Source of the DNA: Shigella phage Shfl2
Sequence record: HM035025
DNA length: 64,000 nt
Direction: 5' to 3' (one strand)
Below are positions 24,118-33,772 of the stretch, piece after piece. Within the stretch, counting starts at the first letter, position 1, and each line of letters opens with the position of its first letter. Below the pieces are notes generated by a model that made no database searches, was not told the origin of the DNA, and saw only the letters and a program-made list of their open reading frames with translations. The position numbers and the translations under genes are program-made.

Positions 24118-26214
24118 TTATCCTTGAACGAACTTGTAAGGCATGTTTGCAATATCTATGCAAGACGCAATAATTCCAAGAGATGATTCTACTTTTTGTT
24201 TAACATTTGATGAAACAAATGATGCAAAGTCAACTCTGTCTTCTATTTCAATATCACCTGTCATTGCAACTACTTCACCAGTTTCCATTAGACGGTCACC
24301 GTCATAAATTACCGATTCGGTGAGTTCTTCGGTGGTCATAACTTCAGCTTGAATGAGTTTTGTATTATTAGACGTGGTTCCGTCATTATTAGAAGCATCA
24401 GTTATTTTATTAACTTTGACCATCAATCCACGTGGTAGAATAACTTCAGCTTCTGTTGCTATTCCGAGACTTCCTGGATATATAACATTAACTTTATGAG
24501 CTCCATCAATTGCCCATCCTATTTGAACTTTAACGTATTCAGGATTTTCTTTATACGCTCTTATTTCGTTTGGATTAATAGTTATTCCTTCTTCATTTTT
24601 ATCAACTGTCAATTCATTACGAGCTTCTGGTTCTAAAAGACCAATACCAGCATGTGTAATTCCAAAACGTCCAAAAATGATAGGAGTTAAAGAAGTAGAT
24701 ACAAAATTTCTGAAATAGAACACTTTATTTTTAACTAGTGCTTCGTATATAGGAGCAGTCATGCTTTGAGCACGATAAACTGTAATGCCTTCTGGTATAC
24801 GGTCACCATTTTCAAAAGCTGAATCTAAGTTATTTATAGCAGATTCAATTTCTTTTTCACTCATTACATCATATCGTTCTGGATTGTAACGACCCAAAAG
24901 AAGATTATTGATGTCAGTATATCCTGAACCACAATACTCTCTAATGCCGCGCTTTTGTGATGGAGTATATTTAGAACCATCACGGGCAATAGTAATATCA
25001 ATCATTGGACCTGCACCAATTCCAGAAAAACTATAAATCATTCGTTTGAGGAATTTAGTTTTTGCTGCGTTCCAGGAATTTTTAGTTATTTCTTCCCAGA
25101 CTTCATCTGGCTGCCCTTTACGAGTTTTATTATGTTTATCAAGCCATTTATCTTTGTATTCTTCAAAGAATTTATTAACAGCTGCTGCGTATTTCTCTAA
25201 ACATTTTATTGAAGTAGTTGGTTCATTTTTAATCGCATTAAGAATTACATCTTTAATTTTTTCAGAAACTTCATTAACCTCACTTTTTGAAAAGAATTTA
25301 TAGTCATAATGAAGTTCATCTGCAGTTCCTTCAGCAATAATTTTTGCTGCTTTAGTTTTAGAAGCTAATGAATTAATTCCAAGCTTCATTTCTTCTGCTT
25401 CGGGAATTAAAGGAGCGGTAGCAGGTTTATTGAAATTAGCTGCGGTAGATTCATACTTCTGGAATAATTCACTTTCAAATCTAGAAGATTCCAATGATTG
25501 ACTTTGCGCAATTGCTCTACGGGAAATTTTAACTTTAACGATTACAGCTTGGTCAGAACGCTTATCATTTTCTTGCGCAATAGATGCTGCAATTGCCTCA
25601 TTTTTAGTTACTTGGGCTCCAGTATCTTTATTGATATAAACATCACCGACTTTCGATTCAACTTTAGTAAAGAGCTCGGTACTAATTTCCGGAACTCCTG
25701 GAATGTCTTCTAGTGATACATTTTTGCGATGTATAAGAATATATGCATACTTTTTATCATAATCCCAGAGTTCCTTAAGAAGGACGTATCTGCCACCTGA
25801 ACGACTACGGATAAGTCTATCAGCAATAACTTGAATTTGTCGAGCTTGACCAGCAGTTTTAGACTTAAGAATACGGAGCATACAGGCATCAATTTTATAC
25901 TGACGCATAGTTTGCATTGCAACAGTAAAAACTGAATTGATATAATTAATTGGGCTTGGACCAAGACCTTTCAATTTAGCAATTGAACCTTTAGCAGTTA
26001 ATGTAAAAGGAACAATATGCATCATTTTATCGCCCATTTTTAAATCGCGATTAGTATCACCTCCAGATGTATAGGTACATAAACGAAAGCCTGGTTGTTC
26101 AATTGCGTCATCAACATGAACTGAAAAAATTTGTGGTATTTTCTTCTTTGGATTTAAGTTTGTAATCGGAAGAGTAGTATCTTCGTCAAATAATTCTGTA
26201 ATGAGTTCCATCAT
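24118..26214 (-). CDS. Alt-like ADP-ribosyltransferase, paralog 2
   Basis: 698 aa, 3 nt upstream of paralog 1; conserved N-terminus (MMELITELFD...), YRAQ...FVSTSL...EAEVILPRG, divergent C-terminal tail. Confidence 0.8.
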   Translation of the reverse strand: MMELITELFDEDTTLPITNLNPKKKIPQIFSVHVDDAIEQPGFRLCTYTSGGDTNRDLKMGDKMMHIVPFTLTAKGSIAKLKGLGPSPINYINSVFTVAMQTMRQYKIDACMLRILKSKTAGQARQIQVIADRLIRSRSGGRYVLLKELWDYDKKYAYILIHRKNVSLEDIPGVPEISTELFTKVESKVGDVYINKDTGAQVTKNEAIAASIAQENDKRSDQAVIVKVKISRRAIAQSQSLESSRFESELFQKYESTAANFNKPATAPLIPEAEEMKLGINSLASKTKAAKIIAEGTADELHYDYKFFSKSEVNEVSEKIKDVILNAIKNEPTTSIKCLEKYAAAVNKFFEEYKDKWLDKHNKTRKGQPDEVWEEITKNSWNAAKTKFLKRMIYSFSGIGAGPMIDITIARDGSKYTPSQKRGIREYCGSGYTDINNLLLGRYNPERYDVMSEKEIESAINNLDSAFENGDRIPEGITVYRAQSMTAPIYEALVKNKVFYFRNFVSTSLTPIIFGRFGITHAGIGLLEPEARNELTVDKNEEGITINPNEIRAYKENPEYVKVQIGWAIDGAHKVNVIYPGSLGIATEAEVILPRGLMVKVNKITDASNNDGTTSNNTKLIQAEVMTTEELTESVIYDGDRLMETGEVVAMTGDIEIEDRVDFASFVSSNVKQKVESSLGIIASCIDIANMPYKFVQG

Positions 26215-26234
26215 ATCCTCTCTAGTGTTTATTC

Positions 26235-26242
26235 TATTTATA
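26235..26242 (-). promoter_or_regulatory. Late promoter (minus strand) upstream of Alt paralog pair
   Basis: Plus tatttata, 20 nt upstream of paralog 2 start. Confidence 0.6.
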
Positions 26243-26247
26243 AAATT

Positions 26248-26265
26248 AAAGGCCCGAAGGCCTTT
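26248..26265. terminator. Tetraloop hairpin AAAGGCC-CGAA-GGCCUUU
   Basis: Perfect 7-bp stem with CGAA loop, immediately after the 62-aa ORF stop on minus strand. Confidence 0.55.
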
Positions 26266-26452
26266 AGTAATCTAGTGGTAAGAGAGTACGATATATTTCA
26301 AACTTTGGTCCTTTTTCATAGGCATCAAATGTTTCTGTAAATTTATTATAAGCGTATGCATCTACAAATTCGAGAATGACTTGTGATACAGAAGTAGAAA
26401 CATCTCCACCTTCTTTTTGAGCAATGACAATTGTTTCTAAGTAAGCTTTCAT
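26264..26452 (-). CDS. Hypothetical small protein
   Basis: 62 aa, start overlaps gene 30 stop. Confidence 0.45.
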   Translation of the reverse strand: MKAYLETIVIAQKEGGDVSTSVSQVILEFVDAYAYNKFTETFDAYEKGPKFEIYRTLLPLDY

Positions 26453-27912
26453 AGACCAGTTACCTCATGAAAATCACCAAATACATCCTCGAATGTATTA
26501 GCTTTAGTTTTATCTTCACGTAAACGAATCGCAATCGGAAGAAATAATTTAACGTAATCAGTGCGGCCATCAGATTTTAACCAACCGTTGCATTCGCACT
26601 CTAGAATTTTTCCAATATAATAATTTTGGTTTTCCATAATGCGAGTACGGTCAAGCTCATGTGATTTTACGCCGGCTTTATCTTTTAAGCCTGAACCAGC
26701 ATTTACTTTAATTTTTCCACACTCTGACTCAAGAATAAATCCACCCGCTTTGGTAGGGTCTTTACGGTGAGGATAAATTCCTACAATTTTTAAATCAACA
26801 TCAATTACTTCTTTAAATTTATAAAGATTTTTTGAACGAGCATTTTCCCATAATCCATCGATATTTTTGAGAATAATACCTTCAAGACCTTGGTCAATAT
26901 ACTTTTTATAAATTACCTTAGCTTCATCTAGGTTATTTACTATCTGGTTTTCAATTAAAATTACTTTATCATAACCTGATGTCATTTGTTCTAGTTTAGA
27001 AAAACGTACATCATATTTCAAACGAAATGCAGGAAGACCGTATATTTCTACCAACGGGACATAATCCCAGACCTGAAACTTCATGCATTTGGCTTCTTTT
27101 TCGGAAATGGTTCCTTTTAAGGATTTATTGGCGATTCCATTAGAAGCAGTACGAGATTCCGCTACTTCGGCGAATTCTTTAGCTTTACTAATTTCAGGAT
27201 AAGCATCAAAAAGAAAATCTAGGCCTTCTGGTTCCTTTTTAACTTGCTCATGGTATACCAATTCGCCATCAATTAACACACCTTCTGGATGAATCTGACG
27301 AGCTTCAGCAGTCATTTTAATTAACTCTTCCTTAAGAAGATCTAATCCTAGATATTCATTACCAGCTCGTGATAAAAGACGAACATCATCTAATTCATCA
27401 CCTCTAACTTCAGCAAAACACCGAGCTCCATCTGCTTTTAACTGCGCAAAGGCTGGAAACTTGATATTCTTATTAATGCCTTTTTCATCATAAGAACTTG
27501 CCAGCATTTGAGGTTGTTCAGGAATTAAACCTGGCCAAACTTTGTTTGCAATAGATACTGAAGCACCGCATTCAAGGTCTCGCATCATCACTCGACGCAA
27601 AACTTCAACATCATCTTTTTTACCGTCAGCAATATATCCAGTCAATTCCTCAATTGCCGCATTTCCAGTCAATTTCCGAGTAGCTAATGTGAATTCAATG
27701 AAGTCAAGCATATCGGTAAGAGTCAACATTCCAAAACTCTGGGTAGCAATACCAGGTTTAGGCCATTTCTTGATATAATACTGTAACCCACGAGAATAAG
27801 TCAGACGATATACTCGTTTAAGCAATTCATTATCTTTATTCTTTTCAAGAATTGCTTGCTTCTGCTTAGTTGAACCAATAGATGCTATTTCATTCAGAAT
27901 TTTAAGAATCAT
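26449..27912 (-). CDS. 30: ATP-dependent DNA ligase gp30
   Basis: 487 aa, same length as T4 DNA ligase, T4 position next to alt. Confidence 0.95.
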   Translation of the reverse strand: MILKILNEIASIGSTKQKQAILEKNKDNELLKRVYRLTYSRGLQYYIKKWPKPGIATQSFGMLTLTDMLDFIEFTLATRKLTGNAAIEELTGYIADGKKDDVEVLRRVMMRDLECGASVSIANKVWPGLIPEQPQMLASSYDEKGINKNIKFPAFAQLKADGARCFAEVRGDELDDVRLLSRAGNEYLGLDLLKEELIKMTAEARQIHPEGVLIDGELVYHEQVKKEPEGLDFLFDAYPEISKAKEFAEVAESRTASNGIANKSLKGTISEKEAKCMKFQVWDYVPLVEIYGLPAFRLKYDVRFSKLEQMTSGYDKVILIENQIVNNLDEAKVIYKKYIDQGLEGIILKNIDGLWENARSKNLYKFKEVIDVDLKIVGIYPHRKDPTKAGGFILESECGKIKVNAGSGLKDKAGVKSHELDRTRIMENQNYYIGKILECECNGWLKSDGRTDYVKLFLPIAIRLREDKTKANTFEDVFGDFHEVTGL

Positions 27913-28178
27913 TGTTCATCCTTTAGAGTTTGGTTTACAGCTCTATTATAAATCAATTCATCATTAAGCTCAGGCAAAGACTTATGATATGTAGTTCTAA
28001 CTTTATTTCCTTGCATCCAGTGCTTGACGTAAATGAAACCTTGCTCTACACATTTTTTAAAAATTCGTTCGTCTTTTTGAGCTCGGAATTCTGGATTGCA
28101 TCTAAAAAATTGATTTACGTGACCGTAATCACGTGTAGTATTACCTTCATTTTCATAAATAGTGTGAACAACAAACAT
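27909..28178 (-). CDS. Hypothetical protein
   Basis: 89 aa, coupled start/stop overlaps in operon. Confidence 0.55.
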   Translation of the reverse strand: MFVVHTIYENEGNTTRDYGHVNQFFRCNPEFRAQKDERIFKKCVEQGFIYVKHWMQGNKVRTTYHKSLPELNDELIYNRAVNQTLKDEQ

Positions 28179-29047
28179 TAGAATGCTCCTTGGAAAATAT
28201 TATCACCACTACCACTAGTAAGTCTATTAAAATACCCTGCATCACCAGGCTTAGTATAACTCCACGTATGAAATGGATTCATATGATACGGGTGTGTATA
28301 ATATGGATTATATGGATGTGTATAATATGGATTATACGGATTAAATCCAGGAGTTCTCCAGGTAGTGTTCCAACGAAAAGAATCGTTTTTAACCATCTTC
28401 TCAATTACATCTTTTATAGCTTTTTCACTATCAAAACTTTCTTTATTTTCCTTCGGTGAAAAAAGCTTATTTTCTACATCATTCCATGTATAAACTCGCT
28501 GCGCAGTTTTTGGAATATTGTCACGCTCTCCTCGAGCCATCCAATAAACAGGAACATTTAATATTTCACTCGCATGATCGCAGTGGTAAGCAAGATCGTC
28601 AATGTAACAAATTACGTTATATTTCTCTTTTGCCTTTTTGAACAACTCTTCTTTTGAAGAATCATGACCACACATCATTACTTCTGAGAAGGCACCAGGA
28701 AAAAGAGCATTCAAATTAAATTGACGATTCAACAGAGCGTCAATAGAATCACCCAATGCTGTAACAGCTACAAAATTATAATCTTCTTTTAATTTGTTAA
28801 TTACACACAGTGCATCTTTATATGGAGACAAATAACGAATAAAATCTGATCGATTATATTTTTCAATTAACTTGACACCAAGTTCTTCATCACAATTAAA
28901 GAGTTTACCCGGAGAAATAAATTTCTCATCTTGGATCATTTTTAAAATATGTTCTAACGGAAGATTATATTTCTGAGCAAAATAAGGAAGGCCTGATTGC
29001 CAGCTTAAACATACTCCATCAATATCAGTCAAAATAGTAGGCTTCAT
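28178..29047 (-). CDS. HAD-superfamily phosphatase / nucleotidase-like protein with C-terminal Pro/Tyr/His-rich tandem repeat
   Basis: 289 aa; N-terminal DIDGV (HAD motif I-like); C-terminus NPYNPYYTHPYNPYYTHPYHMNPFH. Confidence 0.65.
   Translation of the reverse strand: MKPTILTDIDGVCLSWQSGLPYFAQKYNLPLEHILKMIQDEKFISPGKLFNCDEELGVKLIEKYNRSDFIRYLSPYKDALCVINKLKEDYNFVAVTALGDSIDALLNRQFNLNALFPGAFSEVMMCGHDSSKEELFKKAKEKYNVICYIDDLAYHCDHASEILNVPVYWMARGERDNIPKTAQRVYTWNDVENKLFSPKENKESFDSEKAIKDVIEKMVKNDSFRWNTTWRTPGFNPYNPYYTHPYNPYYTHPYHMNPFHTWSYTKPGDAGYFNRLTSGSGDNIFQGAF
28293..28340. repeat. Tandem direct repeat, 2 x 24 bp
   Basis: tgtgtataatatggattata(t/c)gga repeated head-to-tail; encodes the PYNPYYTH repeat on the minus strand. 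Confidence 0.85.
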
Positions 29048-29508
29048 AGAGAGTCTCTTAATAGGTTTAACACATCAATAAATTCAGCTTCGGTTAGTAT
29101 TGTATCATCTTTTGTTAGACCACTAGCCATGCTGTGCTTCAAAACTTTTCCTTTCGAGGCTTGTAATGCATCGCGAAAGCCCTTGTTTTGGAACGCTGCT
29201 TCAAAATATGCATTTGTGTATAATTCTTTCCACGCCGGGGAGTATCTTGAAAACGGAACTCCAATCCAGAAGAGGGTCCCACGGTCCTGAGCTCTTGCAT
29301 AAGACCTTCCAGCTTGTTGGGCGGCAAGCCCGGATAATCCAAATATACGACGTTGTTGTTCAACATTTTTCACCTTGCATCCTTGGAGGAATCCTTCAAG
29401 ACCTCCAAATTGAATACCATCCATGACGAAAGGCCATTGGGCGAAATTGCTTAATGCACATGATGGCCATCTAAAATTGCTTCTAATCTCTAACTCAGAC
29501 ATTTTCAA
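29044..29508 (-). CDS. NADAR (YbiA-like) domain protein, putative ADP-ribose-processing enzyme
   Basis: 154 aa; LSNFAQWPFVMDG...LEGFLQGCKV resembles the NADAR signature FSNFAAWP..VDG...EHYFQAQK as I recall it. Confidence 0.6.
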   Translation of the reverse strand: MKMSELEIRSNFRWPSCALSNFAQWPFVMDGIQFGGLEGFLQGCKVKNVEQQRRIFGLSGLAAQQAGRSYARAQDRGTLFWIGVPFSRYSPAWKELYTNAYFEAAFQNKGFRDALQASKGKVLKHSMASGLTKDDTILTEAEFIDVLNLLRDSL

Positions 29509-29701
29509 TACTTATAATTTCAACATCAGCCCAATGACCATAGCAAGGAAGACGAAATTCAACTGGCCAGTTAGGGTCCTTTTCTAATATAATAGACTGA
29601 ACTTGTGGCTCTTCATATTCATCGGTATACGGACCTTTATACGTTACTTTATATGTGACCTTAATGTACTGAATTCCAAAAATCTTATTAATTATATTCA
29701 T
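29495..29701 (-). CDS. Hypothetical protein
   Basis: 68-aa ORF in compact operon. Confidence 0.5.
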   Translation of the reverse strand: MNIINKIFGIQYIKVTYKVTYKGPYTDEYEEPQVQSIILEKDPNWPVEFRLPCYGHWADVEIISIENV

Positions 29702-29895
29702 ACTAATTCCTTTAATCCATAGATGGGAGATAATTCATCACCCATACGAAGGTCTTCATTTCCATCTACCCAGGAAACAATATAAGCCTCTTTTATTTGA
29801 ATACCACTCCATTTAAATGGAGGTAGAACCTTAGAAATTAATCCAGGTATACCAACTCCCTTTAATTCAACAGTTTGACCCAAAAAGAATTTCAT
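29698..29895 (-). CDS. Hypothetical protein
   Basis: 65-aa ORF, overlapping stop/start. Confidence 0.5.
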   Translation of the reverse strand: MKFFLGQTVELKGVGIPGLISKVLPPFKWSGIQIKEAYIVSWVDGNEDLRMGDELSPIYGLKELV

Positions 29896-30182
29896 TAGAA
29901 CCTCATCTGAAAGCCGTGTGATTTAACATTACCACCGCCAATATCAGAAATGTTAATTTCACTCGCAATTGAAGGGTCAATGTCAATTTCACGATTGAGT
30001 TTAGTGATAGCTAAAGTATCACGCCCATTTACTGTACGGAATTCTAAAGGACATACCACATCAACGTAATTTTTAATCGATTCACTGGTAGGTTGCAAAT
30101 GTGCAGGAAGGTCTTTGGGCGCCTTAGAGAAAACCACTTCACAAAAATTTTTGCGGGTATCAAAATAAGTAGTCATAAACAT
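29895..30182 (-). CDS. Hypothetical protein
   Basis: 95-aa ORF, GAGG Shine-Dalgarno after hairpin. Confidence 0.5.
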   Translation of the reverse strand: MFMTTYFDTRKNFCEVVFSKAPKDLPAHLQPTSESIKNYVDVVCPLEFRTVNGRDTLAITKLNREIDIDPSIASEINISDIGGGNVKSHGFQMRF

Positions 30183-30198
30183 AATATTTTCCTCAGTA

Positions 30199-30214
30199 AG
30201 GGGCCGAAGCCCCT
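30199..30214. other. Intercistronic tetraloop hairpin AGGGGC-CGAA-GCCCCU
   Basis: Same hairpin sequence as at 9133-9148; T-rich tract only on the plus-strand side. Confidence 0.6.
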
Positions 30215-30223
30215 CATTTTATT

Positions 30224-30589
30224 TTAAATATCAAATTCGTTAAGAACTACATCAAAGATTGCTTCGAGATGTTCAGGTTTAGCTCGGTTACTCAGGATAT
30301 GACGAATCCAAGTTTTAACCAGAAGTTTACGATTAACACCGTTCCAGCAAGGATGAGTACCTAAATCACGCTGACGGAAATCATCATCTAATGCAATTTT
30401 GAAGTTGGAACCTTCCATCGTGATTGAAACCGTGATGCCATTTTCAAATCGCATATAAACGTAGTTAGGAGTCATATACTGCTCAATTTCGCATACTGAT
30501 CCATTTTGATGTTTCCAAAGGCAGATGGTATCAATAGAACCTGCAATACCATTAGAAACATATTTACGTTCAAAGTTAATGTAGTTCAT
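30224..30589 (-). CDS. Hypothetical protein
   Basis: 121-aa ORF preceded by early promoter. Confidence 0.55.
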   Translation of the reverse strand: MNYINFERKYVSNGIAGSIDTICLWKHQNGSVCEIEQYMTPNYVYMRFENGITVSITMEGSNFKIALDDDFRQRDLGTHPCWNGVNRKLLVKTWIRHILSNRAKPEHLEAIFDVVLNEFDI

Positions 30590-30615
30590 TTTTATTCTCC
30601 GAGATGTTTAATTGC

Positions 30616-30646
30616 GGTACAGGTATATAATATCATATCCTGTACC
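30616..30646. repeat. Inverted repeat GGTACAGG-N15-CCTGTACC spanning a promoter -10
   Basis: Perfect 8-bp arms flanking tatataatatcatat. Confidence 0.7.
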
Positions 30647-30655
30647 AAAGTAAAC
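30627..30655 (-). promoter_or_regulatory. Early promoter (GTTTAC - 17 nt - TATTAT)
   Basis: Minus strand GTTTAC at 30650-30655, TATTAT at 30627-30632. Confidence 0.6.
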
Positions 30656-30657
30656 AA

Positions 30658-30990
30658 TTATTTTACTACTTTCCAATGCTTCATGTCAAGTTTACCAACT
30701 TTTTTCATCTTCTCAATTAAGCGTTCGGCACGTTGGCGAGCTGTAACATAATACCATTCACCTAATTCATTTTGTTCAATTTTTCCAACGATTACTGTAT
30801 TCAATTCATAAATCCAACCGGTAAAGAAATTATGAACTTGAATTGTAAAGGTGAAATCTGTTCCCATACCTTCTGTTGTTTCTACTTCAATAATATCACC
30901 TTCAACTGCCATTAAGAACCACATAGTTTCATCATATGCACCGTTGAAGCATTTAGTTTTAACCGCAGCGTTCAGATTAATCGTTTTCAT
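30658..30990 (-). CDS. Hypothetical protein
   Basis: 110-aa ORF preceded by early promoter. Confidence 0.55.
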   Translation of the reverse strand: MKTINLNAAVKTKCFNGAYDETMWFLMAVEGDIIEVETTEGMGTDFTFTIQVHNFFTGWIYELNTVIVGKIEQNELGEWYYVTARQRAERLIEKMKKVGKLDMKHWKVVK

Positions 30991-31017
30991 TTTATTCTCC
31001 TTTGTTTGTGTAAGATA

Positions 31018-31047
31018 ATACTATCACAAAGGAGCTATACTGTAAAC
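31018..31047 (-). promoter_or_regulatory. Early promoter (GTTTAC - 18 nt - TGaTAGTAT)
   Basis: Minus-strand match upstream of ORF starting at 30990. Confidence 0.55.
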
Positions 31048-31065
31048 AACTTTATGCAATCTTTG

Positions 31066-31096
31066 GAAAATAAAAAAGGACTCCCGAAGGAGTCCT
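31066..31096 (-). terminator. Rho-independent terminator
   Basis: AGGACUCC-UUCG-GGAGUCCU hairpin followed on minus strand by UUUUUAUUUU. Confidence 0.75.
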
Positions 31097-31100
31097 CAAC

Positions 31101-31277
31101 TTATGCTTTCTGCTTACCAAAACGAGAAGCATCATCTCGAAGAACCGCACGTGCTCGGCGCATGATCTTCTCAACAGTTTGATTGATACGAGAGTTCGAC
31201 CCACGCTTGTAGCCAGCGCGTTTAGAATCACCAACTTTCTTTTCAACTGCTTTCTTTGCTTTAACTTGTTTTGCCAT
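31101..31277 (-). CDS. Small highly basic protein (58 aa)
   Basis: MAKQVKAKKAVEKKVGDSKRAGYKRGSNSRINQ..., Lys/Arg-rich; start chosen at the second in-frame ATG (track ORF extends to 31319). Confidence 0.4.
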   Translation of the reverse strand: MAKQVKAKKAVEKKVGDSKRAGYKRGSNSRINQTVEKIMRRARAVLRDDASRFGKQKA

Positions 31278-31522
31278 TATAAATTCTCTTTTAAATGAAA
31301 ATGCAGGACTTATTGGCATTGCCTGCGCAAGCCCTCAAGGGGAACATAGGTTTTTGGGTATTTAACGACCAGGATAACCATAAACCCGTCATCATTCACA
31401 TTCAAGAGGTACACCATAAAACTGCCGGGGTCTTAAAACTATAATGATTCGTAAATCATTAATCAGACAGTTCGATGGCTCCTCGATTTTAGCTCACACT
31501 AAGGCAGTGAATCTCCAATAAA

Positions 31523-31771
31523 TTACTTCAATGTTACCACAAAGTGACGAACTGCTTTTCGTGCAGCAGAAGCCAAAGGCTTAGCATATTTAAGTTCATC
31601 TTTTTCCTGAAGCTCAGCAGCTAATGCAGTTTGAGCAGGATTCAGATGTTTGAAATAACGCAGGATTTCAAGAGCTTCGGCTTCAACATCAATAGATGCG
31701 CCATAGTTTTCGTGACCATTATTCCATGCGTTTCGTTGCAGTTCAAGAGCGTGTTGTAATTGTTTAATCAT
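31523..31771 (-). CDS. rIII: rIII lysis inhibition accessory protein
   Basis: 82 aa, same length and position (upstream of gene 31) as T4 rIII. Confidence 0.8.
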   Translation of the reverse strand: MIKQLQHALELQRNAWNNGHENYGASIDVEAEALEILRYFKHLNPAQTALAAELQEKDELKYAKPLASAARKAVRHFVVTLK

Positions 31772-31910
31772 TTAAAAATTCTCGTTAGAGATTAAAACCC
31801 GGTAGTCACGTTCTTCTGAATTTCATCTTCTTTCGACAGATCTCTCAGTTGTAGACTACCACATAGAATTGTTCGGTTAACTTATTATTCCGACACCCAA
31901 TTCATATTAT

Positions 31911-31918
31911 TATTTATA
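31911..31918 (-). promoter_or_regulatory. Late promoter (minus strand) upstream of rIII
   Basis: Plus tatttata; 139-nt leader to rIII ATG. Confidence 0.5.
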
Positions 31919-32254
31919 TCACTTATAAAGACACGGAATAGCTTTATAGTGACAGGTAACAAATTTTTGTTTAATTTCCTTTGGCTGCTTAAGACCCAGA
32001 GCTACAAAAGGATGCGGAACGTTTCGAATTTGACCAACTGGAAGAGAAGTCAAATCACCAACTTCGCAGAAACCTTCAGGAACATCAGGACCAACAGAGT
32101 GAACTACACACAGTTCAGGAACTTCACCTTGGACACGTTTACCAATAATAAGTCCTGATTCTGTAACTTCTTCATCACCGGCTTGCGCAGGTTCAGAAAC
32201 TAAAATAACATATTCACCGACAGCACGAATTGGTAGCTGTTGTACTTCAGACAT
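31919..32254 (-). CDS. 31: Co-chaperonin gp31 (GroES analogue)
   Basis: 111 aa, same length as T4 gp31. Confidence 0.9.
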
Positions 32255-32284
32255 CGTTTTTCCTTTTTGTTAACAGATGAATTA

Positions 32285-32309
32285 ATAATAACAAATAATT
32301 CTTAAAGCA
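32285..32309 (-). promoter_or_regulatory. MotA-dependent middle promoter for gene 31
   Basis: Minus strand aaTGCTTTA - 12 nt - TATTAT. Confidence 0.55.
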
Positions 32310-32310
32310 T

Positions 32311-32619
32311 TTATTTACCAATAAATTGGAGCAAATGCTCAACTTTCATACCATTAACGGAAATCAATTTGTCAATAGAAAAACCTCGCCATGCACCAAG
32401 CTCAACATCAAATACTGGAATCATGTCAGTAGATTCTTTCCGAGTAGATTCAGTCAATTTACCAGTTTGCATGGTTGGCATAAAGTCTGCATCACGAGTA
32501 CCTTTCATAGTACGAATAGTACCATCAGACTTTTCAAAAACTACGTTTGAAATACCCATGGACAATTTAGTTTTCAAAATTTCACGAATTGCTACTTTCT
32601 GTTCAGTTGTCAGTTTCAT
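32311..32619 (-). CDS. Hypothetical protein (T4 31.1 position)
   Basis: 102-aa ORF. Confidence 0.55.
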   Translation of the reverse strand: MKLTTEQKVAIREILKTKLSMGISNVVFEKSDGTIRTMKGTRDADFMPTMQTGKLTESTRKESTDMIPVFDVELGAWRGFSIDKLISVNGMKVEHLLQFIGK

Positions 32620-32856
32620 TTATTTACCTATTACAGTTTTAATATGAGTTGTTCCACGTTCTTTAAGAGTGGAAAGCAACTTTTGGCATTTTTCTAAATC
32701 AGATTTCCAACTATACGGCCTATCAATACAAACCCATTCTGACTTATAATACTGTTTCCATTTAGAGAAAAAATATTTCTTATACTCTACAGCAAATGAA
32801 ATGTTCTCGTTAGAATAAGAACTAATTGCTGTGAGCTGTACCAAACGAAATTTCAT
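32620..32856 (-). CDS. Hypothetical protein (T4 31.2 position)
   Basis: 78-aa ORF. Confidence 0.5.
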   Translation of the reverse strand: MKFRLVQLTAISSYSNENISFAVEYKKYFFSKWKQYYKSEWVCIDRPYSWKSDLEKCQKLLSTLKERGTTHIKTVIGK

Positions 32857-33437
32857 TATTCACCACAGAATTCGTTGATATTTTCCCAATTTAACTTATT
32901 CAAGTTTTTCTTAGGAACATTAAACACTTCAATACCCGCATTTCGCAGAATATCATCCCAGCCAGGTTTATTTTTATCGTATGTTTCGCAATAAACCAGC
33001 TTTTTAATTCCAGATTGAGCTATCGCTTTTGCACAATCTGGGCAAGGAGAAAGTGTTACATACATAGTAGCACCTTCAATTGAAGAACCATTTCGCGCAG
33101 CAAACAAAATCGCATTTAGTTCAGCATGAATTTCATTTTTAGACGACCATTCAGAGTGAGCATTACGATGTTCTTTCGCCAAGACAAAACGATCAGTTGA
33201 ACCAAATGATACACATTCAGGCTTATGACCTTGAATGATAGTATGTTTAGGCTTATTCAGCAACCAACCTTGCTCAGCAGCATAATCGCAGCAATTCACA
33301 CCCCCGGCAGGTGAACCATTATATCCGGTAGAAATAATACGTCCATTCTTTTCAATTACCGCTCCTACCTTCCAGGAGCAACATTTTGATTCTTGTGATA
33401 CTAAATATGCAATTTGAAGTACTGTACTCGCTTTCAT
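32856..33437 (-). CDS. cd: dCMP deaminase
   Basis: 193 aa, zinc-binding deaminase motifs HAELNAI and PCPDC, T4 Cd length. Confidence 0.95.
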   Translation of the reverse strand: MKASTVLQIAYLVSQESKCCSWKVGAVIEKNGRIISTGYNGSPAGGVNCCDYAAEQGWLLNKPKHTIIQGHKPECVSFGSTDRFVLAKEHRNAHSEWSSKNEIHAELNAILFAARNGSSIEGATMYVTLSPCPDCAKAIAQSGIKKLVYCETYDKNKPGWDDILRNAGIEVFNVPKKNLNKLNWENINEFCGE

Positions 33438-33772
33438 TTCATAATCACCAGATAAGCAGATTTAGCAGTTTCAACACGATAAATTTCGTGACGAAGTTTA
33501 GTTATACTTTTAATAACAGAACTAATTATATTCTGCCCATCTTTAAAGCGGTTTTTCTTATCAATAAAAATTGCACCAACCATCTTTTTGTGAAGCTCAA
33601 CCGGATACTTCGTCACAATAATAGCATCATACACAGAAGGATGAATACTATTCACTAGAGTATCATTCATTAAAGTTATTCTAATGAACTGTGCTGTTTC
33701 AGAGTCAAGCGCTCTATGATCACCAGTATCATTTTCAAGACAATTATCAATTATATCAGTTAAATTCATCAT
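33434..33772 (-). CDS. Hypothetical protein
   Basis: 112-aa ORF, overlapping stops/starts. Confidence 0.5.
   Translation of the reverse strand: MMNLTDIIDNCLENDTGDHRALDSETAQFIRITLMNDTLVNSIHPSVYDAIIVTKYPVELHKKMVGAIFIDKKNRFKDGQNIISSVIKSITKLRHEIYRVETAKSAYLVIMK

Follow-up and report, generated by a model that had tools for sequence, protein, structure and literature searches.

A phage NADAR gene of Shigella phage Shfl2: gene 30.3 very probably encodes the anti-DarT1 factor AdfN

Does a short open reading frame (ORF) of Shigella phage Shfl2 encode an enzyme that removes adenosine diphosphate (ADP)-ribose from DNA, or an inactive relative of such enzymes? The ORF lies on the minus strand at positions 29044 to 29508 of the window, by which we mean the whole 64,000-nucleotide stretch of sequence record HM035025 that was analysed. 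A sequence-only reading had assigned a NADAR (YbiA-like) domain to this 154-amino-acid ORF on the basis of the strings LSNFAQWPFVMDG and LEGFLQGCKV, both of which are present as quoted. That reading left two possible outcomes: a counter-defence enzyme that reverses ADP-ribosylation by DarT toxins, or a pseudo-enzyme that carries Glu-Gly in place of the Glu-His pair of YbiA. From the evidence presented below, it is very probable that the gene encodes a functional AdfN protein, an orphan minimal NADAR that removes DarT1-made guanine ADP-ribose from phage DNA. The gene is orthologous to and syntenic with a gene of phage T4, its frame is intact and under purifying selection, and its product has the NADAR fold and conserves the catalytic residues.

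The length of 154 amino acids in the list of ORFs is counted from a TTG codon at 29508. An in-frame ATG at 29502, two codons inside, yields a product of 152 amino acids and is most likely the true start codon, because it is the annotated start in T4 and because the residues mutated in published work are then numbered E36 and K43. The coding sequence is as follows:

29044 to 29502, minus strand: adfN (gene 30.3) coding sequence, 152 amino acids plus stop codon, defined by alignment to T4 NP_049816 and by the match to PF08010.

The predicted protein is identical to T4 gp30.3 (NP_049816) at 149 of 152 positions (98%) in an ungapped, full-length alignment, with three conservative substitutions (L80I, I104F and I125M), and the mean column identity of the DNA alignment to T4 is 99%. 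It matches the entire Pfam model PF08010 (Phage_30_3; profile positions 1-138 of 138) with a score of 232 bits (cutoff 36), and the E value of 1.7e-69 places the ORF far beyond chance. Third codon positions hold 11 of the 13 nucleotide differences from T4 gene 30.3, and 60 of the 95 differences from the corresponding gene of phage P896 (Gaprivervirus), a bias that reveals purifying selection in the adfN frame. Unlike the RB69-type truncation, the window frame runs its full 152 amino acids with no frameshift when aligned with T4. In short, this is the Shfl2 orthologue of T4 gene 30.3, a gene that has since been renamed adfN (anti-DarT factor NADAR).

Membership of this protein in the NADAR superfamily is not apparent from searches with a single sequence. 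A phmmer search of the protein against PDB sequences gave only a chance match (E = 1.4), and because none of the single-sequence searches (Pfam, phmmer against PDB, PHROGs) gave a link to NADAR, family profiles and structure were needed. We collected 89 diverse gp30.3 members from the protein database, and 35 of these match the Pfam NADAR model PF08719 at E <= 1 (best 1.5e-7). When a hidden Markov model (HMM) of the family was run against PDB sequences with hmmsearch, the sole match was E. coli YbiA (2b3w; E = 0.0058). This alignment pairs LSNFA..DG..EGFLQslK with FSNFAAWPIKVDG..EHYFQAQK, and thus the YbiA signature used in the sequence-only reading proved sound, as evident by the fact that the family profile aligns those very motifs. 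An hhalign comparison of the family alignment with MG1655 YbiA gave a probability of 93.9% over 90 columns (E = 1.6e-7). The predicted structure has the YbiA fold, in which small sheets flank a helical core, and its structural alignments with YbiA (2b3w) and with the NADAR protein of Phytophthora nicotianae (8bau) show 14-20% sequence identity. Homology of the gp30.3 family to the NADAR superfamily is confirmed by both profile and fold, which bears out the original domain assignment and demonstrates that a short motif can suffice for an attentive reader to detect a genuine distant relationship. The same placement was made in a 2012 analysis by De Souza and Aravind, which, as cited in later work, put gp30.3 proteins in the superfamily as 'phage NADARs' (cited in PMC11543638, PMC11125620).

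The residues expected of an active NADAR enzyme can be located precisely in the window. The key residues of the superfamily are a Glu and a Lys located seven positions later, such as E88/K95 in the E. coli C7 NADAR and E43/K50 in PnNADAR; in these pairs the Glu binds the distal ribose of ADP-ribose and the Lys its phosphate (PMC11543638). A third position, on the last strand, carries Glu in YbiA-type proteins, Asp in DarT1-associated proteins and His in phage NADARs (PMC11543638; His also in PMC11125620). The corresponding features of the window gene are:

29443 to 29457, minus strand: codons for A16-L17-S18-N19-F20, the N-terminal NADAR signature (FSNFA in YbiA), invariant in the family and located by hmmsearch and by hhalign to YbiA.
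29374 to 29397, minus strand: codons for E36-G37-F38-L39-Q40-G41-C42-K43, including the catalytic Glu (E36) and the phosphate-binding Lys (K43), assigned from conservation and the literature.
29134 to 29136, minus strand: codon for H123, the hallmark His of phage (gp30.3-type) NADARs, invariant in the family and the final residue of the last predicted strand, which spans residues 120-123.
29050 to 29091, minus strand: codons for the intact C-terminal helix (residues 138-151), defined by the secondary structure of the model and by the full-length alignment to T4.

Conservation was counted over 89-90 family sequences. The invariant positions are P13, A16-L17-S18-N19-F20, F25, E36-G37-F38, Q40, Q50, A61, H123, L136 and T137, and K43 is conserved in at least 90% of sequences. 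The spacing between E36 and K43 (E-x6-K) is that of other NADARs. The C-terminal helix begins at the gene position (411) where the RB69 allele is frameshifted, and it is this helix that the inactive RB69 allele has lost.

The biological role of the T4 orthologue has been established in recent years. Resistance of T-even phages to DarTG1 was mapped to gene 30.3, which was renamed adfN (Johannesman et al., Nat Commun 2025, PMC11825919). T4 and T2 phages that lack adfN fail to plaque on DarTG1 hosts, and phage RB69, whose own allele is truncated by the frameshift at gene position 411, is rescued by ectopic AdfN(T4) (PMC11825919). Purified AdfN strips ADP-ribose from DarT1-modified DNA, whereas its E36A variant does not, and rescue is weakened by E36A, by K43A and by C-terminal truncation (PMC11825919). 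On DNA, the T4 phage NADAR cleaves ADP-ribose from guanine but leaves thymine-ADP-ribose intact (PMC11125620, Toxins 2024). The counter-defence role against DarT that had been proposed for the window ORF is therefore supported, having been demonstrated experimentally for its T4 orthologue (PMC11825919).

These data also bear on the possibility that the protein is a pseudo-enzyme, in which a His-to-Gly change after the core Glu kills catalysis and the protein merely binds ADP-ribose or DarT. The substitution is real, as evident by the Glu-His pair of YbiA where the window protein has Glu-Gly, and T4 AdfN proteins with E36A or K43A keep partial rescue in vivo (PMC11825919). However, its interpretation as a sign of inactivation does not hold. 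G37 is an invariant hallmark of the family, and its presence in all 89 diverse members marks a fixed family feature rather than decay. The published set of NADAR catalytic residues does not include the His that follows the core Glu of YbiA (PMC11543638), and the window protein carries the Glu, the Lys at +7 and the last-strand residue. The T4 protein hydrolyses guanine-ADP-ribose (G-ADPr) in vitro, as reported in three independent studies (PMC11825919, PMC11125620, PMC12945103), and does not associate with DarT1 in a two-hybrid assay (PMC11825919). We reject the pseudo-enzyme explanation as extremely improbable, given that in vitro activity has already refuted it for the T4 protein.

A second alternative is that gp30.3 is a housekeeping N-glycosidase of the YbiA type, which would act on intermediates of the riboflavin pathway rather than on DNA. 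However, the last-strand Glu that defines the YbiA subfamily is an invariant His in the gp30.3 family. Likewise, the phage phenotype is specific to DarTG1, and the literature places phage NADARs nearest to the DarG1 type and not the YbiA type (PMC11825919). For these reasons the YbiA-type assignment is rejected, and we give it almost no credence.

Some findings nevertheless weigh against a functional AdfN in the window. The protein alone has no match to PF08719 even at E <= 10, and Pfam reports only Phage_30_3. This is a false negative that arises because Pfam keeps Phage_30_3 as a separate model; the search against the NADAR/DUF1768 profile that had been suggested as a check would have misled if conducted alone. 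The substitutions L80I, I104F and I125M distinguish the window protein from T4 AdfN, and I125M is only two residues from H123. For the T4 protein, E36A and K43A lower rescue in vivo without abolishing it (PMC11825919), DarT1 toxicity in uninfected E. coli is not rescued (PMC11125620; PMC11825919), and phages other than T-even phages are rescued only weakly by AdfN(T4), so the mechanism includes a further T-even factor (PMC11825919). Finally, the Methods of one study give the T4 gp30.3 construct as residues 1-208 whereas the gene product has 152 amino acids (PMC11125620), a discrepancy for which another accession or a mistake may be responsible.

With these points considered, we still favor the assignment of the window gene as a functional adfN, and the following sequence of events would be expected. 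On infection of a DarTG1 host, the DarT1 toxin would ADP-ribosylate guanine (at N2) in phage DNA, and replication would be blocked. AdfN would then hydrolyse the bond between guanine and ADP-ribose, yielding unmodified DNA on which the phage could replicate. In the active site, E36 would contact the distal ribose and K43 the diphosphate, and H123 would sit where other NADARs have their third catalytic acid. In effect, AdfN would serve as a phage-carried orphan copy of the DarG1 antitoxin in the form of a minimal, single-domain enzyme with a NADAR fold. By analogy with the 98%-identical T4 protein, we infer that the window allele possesses this enzymatic activity and would confer the anti-DarTG1 phenotype.

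AdfN might also be a broader eraser, with an additional role on guanine ADP-ribose in RNA or against other ADP-ribosyltransferases that target guanine. The T4 NADAR removes G-ADPr from RNA in vitro, although weakly and less efficiently than a DarG1-type NADAR (PMC11833690), and it acts on oligonucleotides modified by ScARP (PMC11125620, PMC12945103), which shows that activity is independent of the toxin that made the mark. The AdfN authors themselves raised this possibility (PMC11825919). However, the support comes from work conducted in vitro, and there are clear boundaries to the substrate range, as evident by the fact that cytidine-ADPr is not removed (PMC12945103) and that the thymine-specific DarTG2 system is not countered (PMC11825919). 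It seems rather unlikely that this wider role applies.

The surroundings of adfN reproduce those of the T4 gene. Gene order in the window matches the T4 record (alt, alt.1, 30 encoding DNA ligase, 30.1 encoding a DUF3045 protein, 30.2, 30.3, 30.4, 30.5, 30.6, 30.7, 30.8), such that 30.3 sits between 30.4 and 30.2, and the 2.2 kb around the ORF are ~97% identical to many Tequatrovirus genomes (e.g. vB_EcoM_G9062). DNA ligase (gene 30) occupies 26449-27912, and all genes of the region are on the minus strand. The earlier placement of the ORF 'downstream of DNA ligase' is therefore true in plus-strand coordinates only; by direction of transcription, 30.3 is upstream of gene 30. Two overlaps join adfN to its neighbors:

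29495 to 29502, minus strand: 8-nucleotide overlap of the gene 30.4 stop codon (TGA) with the adfN start (ATGTCTGA), read from the sequence and arranged in the same manner in T4.
29044 to 29047, minus strand: ATGA overlap of the adfN stop codon with the gene 30.2 start codon, read from the sequence and the same in T4.

The ATGA overlap is a predicted site of translational coupling between adfN and 30.2. Scans of positions 26000-33500 yielded 26 promoter-like sites against 27.6 in shuffled sequence and five terminator-like sites against 4.6, and because these numbers show no excess over the shuffled expectation, the transcription unit is not inferable from these scans. The genes beside adfN are 30.2 and 30.4, and neither is a DarT gene. 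Among the ORFs examined (24118-33437), the only other gene related to ADP-ribosylation is the orthologue of the Alt ADP-ribosyltransferase at 24118-26214 on the minus strand (PF03496, E = 2.1e-37), which encodes 698 amino acids compared with 682 in T4 and lies ~3 kb from adfN on the same strand. In Aeromonas phage 31 (L005:2501-2950), 30.3 is found inside a tRNA cluster, between vs.6 and tRNA-Arg and away from the ligase gene, which indicates that 30.3 moves within T4-like genomes and that its neighborhood is not fixed.

The presence of an Alt-type gene in the same cluster could be taken to mean that AdfN regulates the ADP-ribosylation carried out by the phage itself, by reversing Alt modifications. 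In the T4 record, Alt is entered as an ADP-ribosyltransferase of RNA polymerase, and thus as directed at protein, whereas the characterised NADARs, including that of T4, all act on base-linked ADP-ribose (PMC11543638, PMC11125620, PMC12945103). Given this mismatch of substrates, and given the location of 30.3 among tRNA genes in Aeromonas phage 31, we rejected the Alt-reversal explanation, which has scarcely any likelihood of being correct.

The neighboring gene 30.2 (28178-29047, minus strand), whose ATG overlaps the adfN stop codon, is annotated as 'hypothetical' everywhere. Its product has no Pfam match, and its PHROG has no assigned function. The gp30.2 family alignment reveals invariant D8, D10, A97 and K132 and conserved T96 and D150-D151. 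The residues D8/D10 (DxD), T96, K132 and D150-D151, each invariant or at least 90% conserved, constitute the four motifs of HAD phosphatases. Residues 1-200 yield a confident AlphaFold2 (AF2) model that matches 118 PDB chains at E <= 0.001, and the 50 best of these are proteins of the HAD superfamily, including 5'(3')-deoxyribonucleotidases. Motifs and model together identify gp30.2 as a HAD-fold phosphatase, hitherto unannotated. Its C-terminal 60-90 residues are predicted to be disordered, have a high content of Pro, Tyr and Asn, and form the most variable part of the family; in the window this tail (28178-28330, minus strand) contains, compared with T4, an insertion of 10 residues in which a neighboring motif is repeated (NPYYTHPY NPYYTHPY).

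The finding that AdfN(T4) reaches its full activity only in T-even infections implies a potentiating phage factor (PMC11825919), and a translationally coupled neighbor, either gp30.2 or the small gp30.4, is a conceivable source. Under this proposal, genes 30.4, 30.3 and 30.2 would constitute a module that repairs ADP-ribosylated DNA. The proposal draws on the ATGA and ATGTCTGA overlaps and on the near-identical distributions of 30.2 and 30.3, as evident by the presence of gp30.2 in 1437 phage records across Straboviridae with a genus spread nearly that of gp30.3 (1509 records). However, 30.2 is two genes from 30.3 in Serratia phage 4S, and it is not in the immediate neighborhood of 30.3 in Aeromonas phage 31. 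The shared distribution also fits equally well with both being near-core genes of T4-like phages. We consider this arrangement highly improbable, yet the identity of the potentiating T-even factor is the sole route to novelty at the adfN locus. The function of AdfN itself is already known, from its NADAR placement in 2012 and its anti-DarTG1 role in 2024-2025, and to this the locus adds nothing new.

A further ORF, 30.3', is nested within adfN at 29139-29366 on the minus strand. It encodes 75 amino acids in the +1 frame of adfN and matches Pfam DUF2883 with E = 4.8e-51. This frame is open in T4, in the window, in Tequatrovirus and in Gaprivervirus P896, but not in Serratia phage 4S or Aeromonas phage 31, where it is closed. 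In comparison with P896, non-synonymous changes account for 30 of the 37 altered codons in the 30.3' frame; within these limits the 30.3 frame has 34 altered codons, 12 of them non-synonymous. The mostly non-synonymous changes and the closure of the frame in distant homologues provide no evidence that 30.3' is a second, selected product.

Searches with tblastn located AdfN in 1509 phage records, 1502 of which cover at least 80% of the query. These phages infect Escherichia, Klebsiella, Shigella, Aeromonas, Acinetobacter and Vibrio; 593 records encode a protein at least 95% identical to that of the window, and phage W143 encodes an identical one. Many database entries (P0004-P0007, P0013-P0018, P0056, P0097) hold shortened gp30.3 proteins, or chimeric ones with an additional match to DUF2883 (the 30.3' frame), Gp30.7 or Gp30.8. 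Such entries resemble naturally occurring frameshifts or deletions of adfN, of the kind known from RB69, and the phages that carry them may be sensitive to DarTG1. The match in PHROGs is phrog_652, labelled 'unknown function', whose profile has 296 positions of which AdfN spans only 126-272; this partial coverage suggests that the family includes longer or fused members.

Annotation of the gene has lagged behind these developments. Most phage records label gene 30.3 'hypothetical protein', and two records apply the name 'DNA ligase': that of Serratia phage 4S (MW082584.1) to its 30.3 homologue (L004:2495-2953), and that of Acinetobacter phage AB1I1M-1 to its 30.2 homologue (P0179). Both names appear to be mistakes propagated from the annotation of the neighboring gene 30. 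Phage records could instead carry the name 'AdfN, NADAR-family DNA ADP-ribosylglycohydrolase' for gene 30.3.

Among characterised systems, the closest is T4 AdfN, with which the window protein shares its genomic position, the overlaps with 30.2 and 30.4, residues E36, K43 and H123, and an intact C-terminal helix, and from which it differs by L80I, I104F and I125M. The DarTG1 antitoxin DarG1, represented by proteins from E. coli C7 and G. lovleyi (PDB 8bat) (Schuller et al. 2023 Mol Cell, PMC11543638), differs in several respects. AdfN lacks the N-terminal extension (152 amino acids compared with 219 in 8bat), such that residues 3-151 of the predicted structure form the modelled core, and it carries His where DarG1 has a catalytic Asp. 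Moreover, AdfN is an orphan with no adjacent darT, and in uninfected cells the T4 protein does not substitute for DarG1. AdfN works like DarG1 but falls outside the DarG1 (BC4488-type) subfamily. Compared with YbiA (2b3w) and the P. nicotianae NADAR (8bau), both of PF08719, AdfN has His for the last-strand Glu; it also has Gly for the His that follows the core Glu of YbiA, and its role is phage counter-defence. AdfN(Bas32) and AdfN(Bas60), from T5-like and Vequintavirinae phages, are likewise guanine-specific phage NADARs that counter DarTG1 (PMC11825919). The published description sets them apart as members of other NADAR clades that were acquired independently and that work without a T-even context (PMC11825919).
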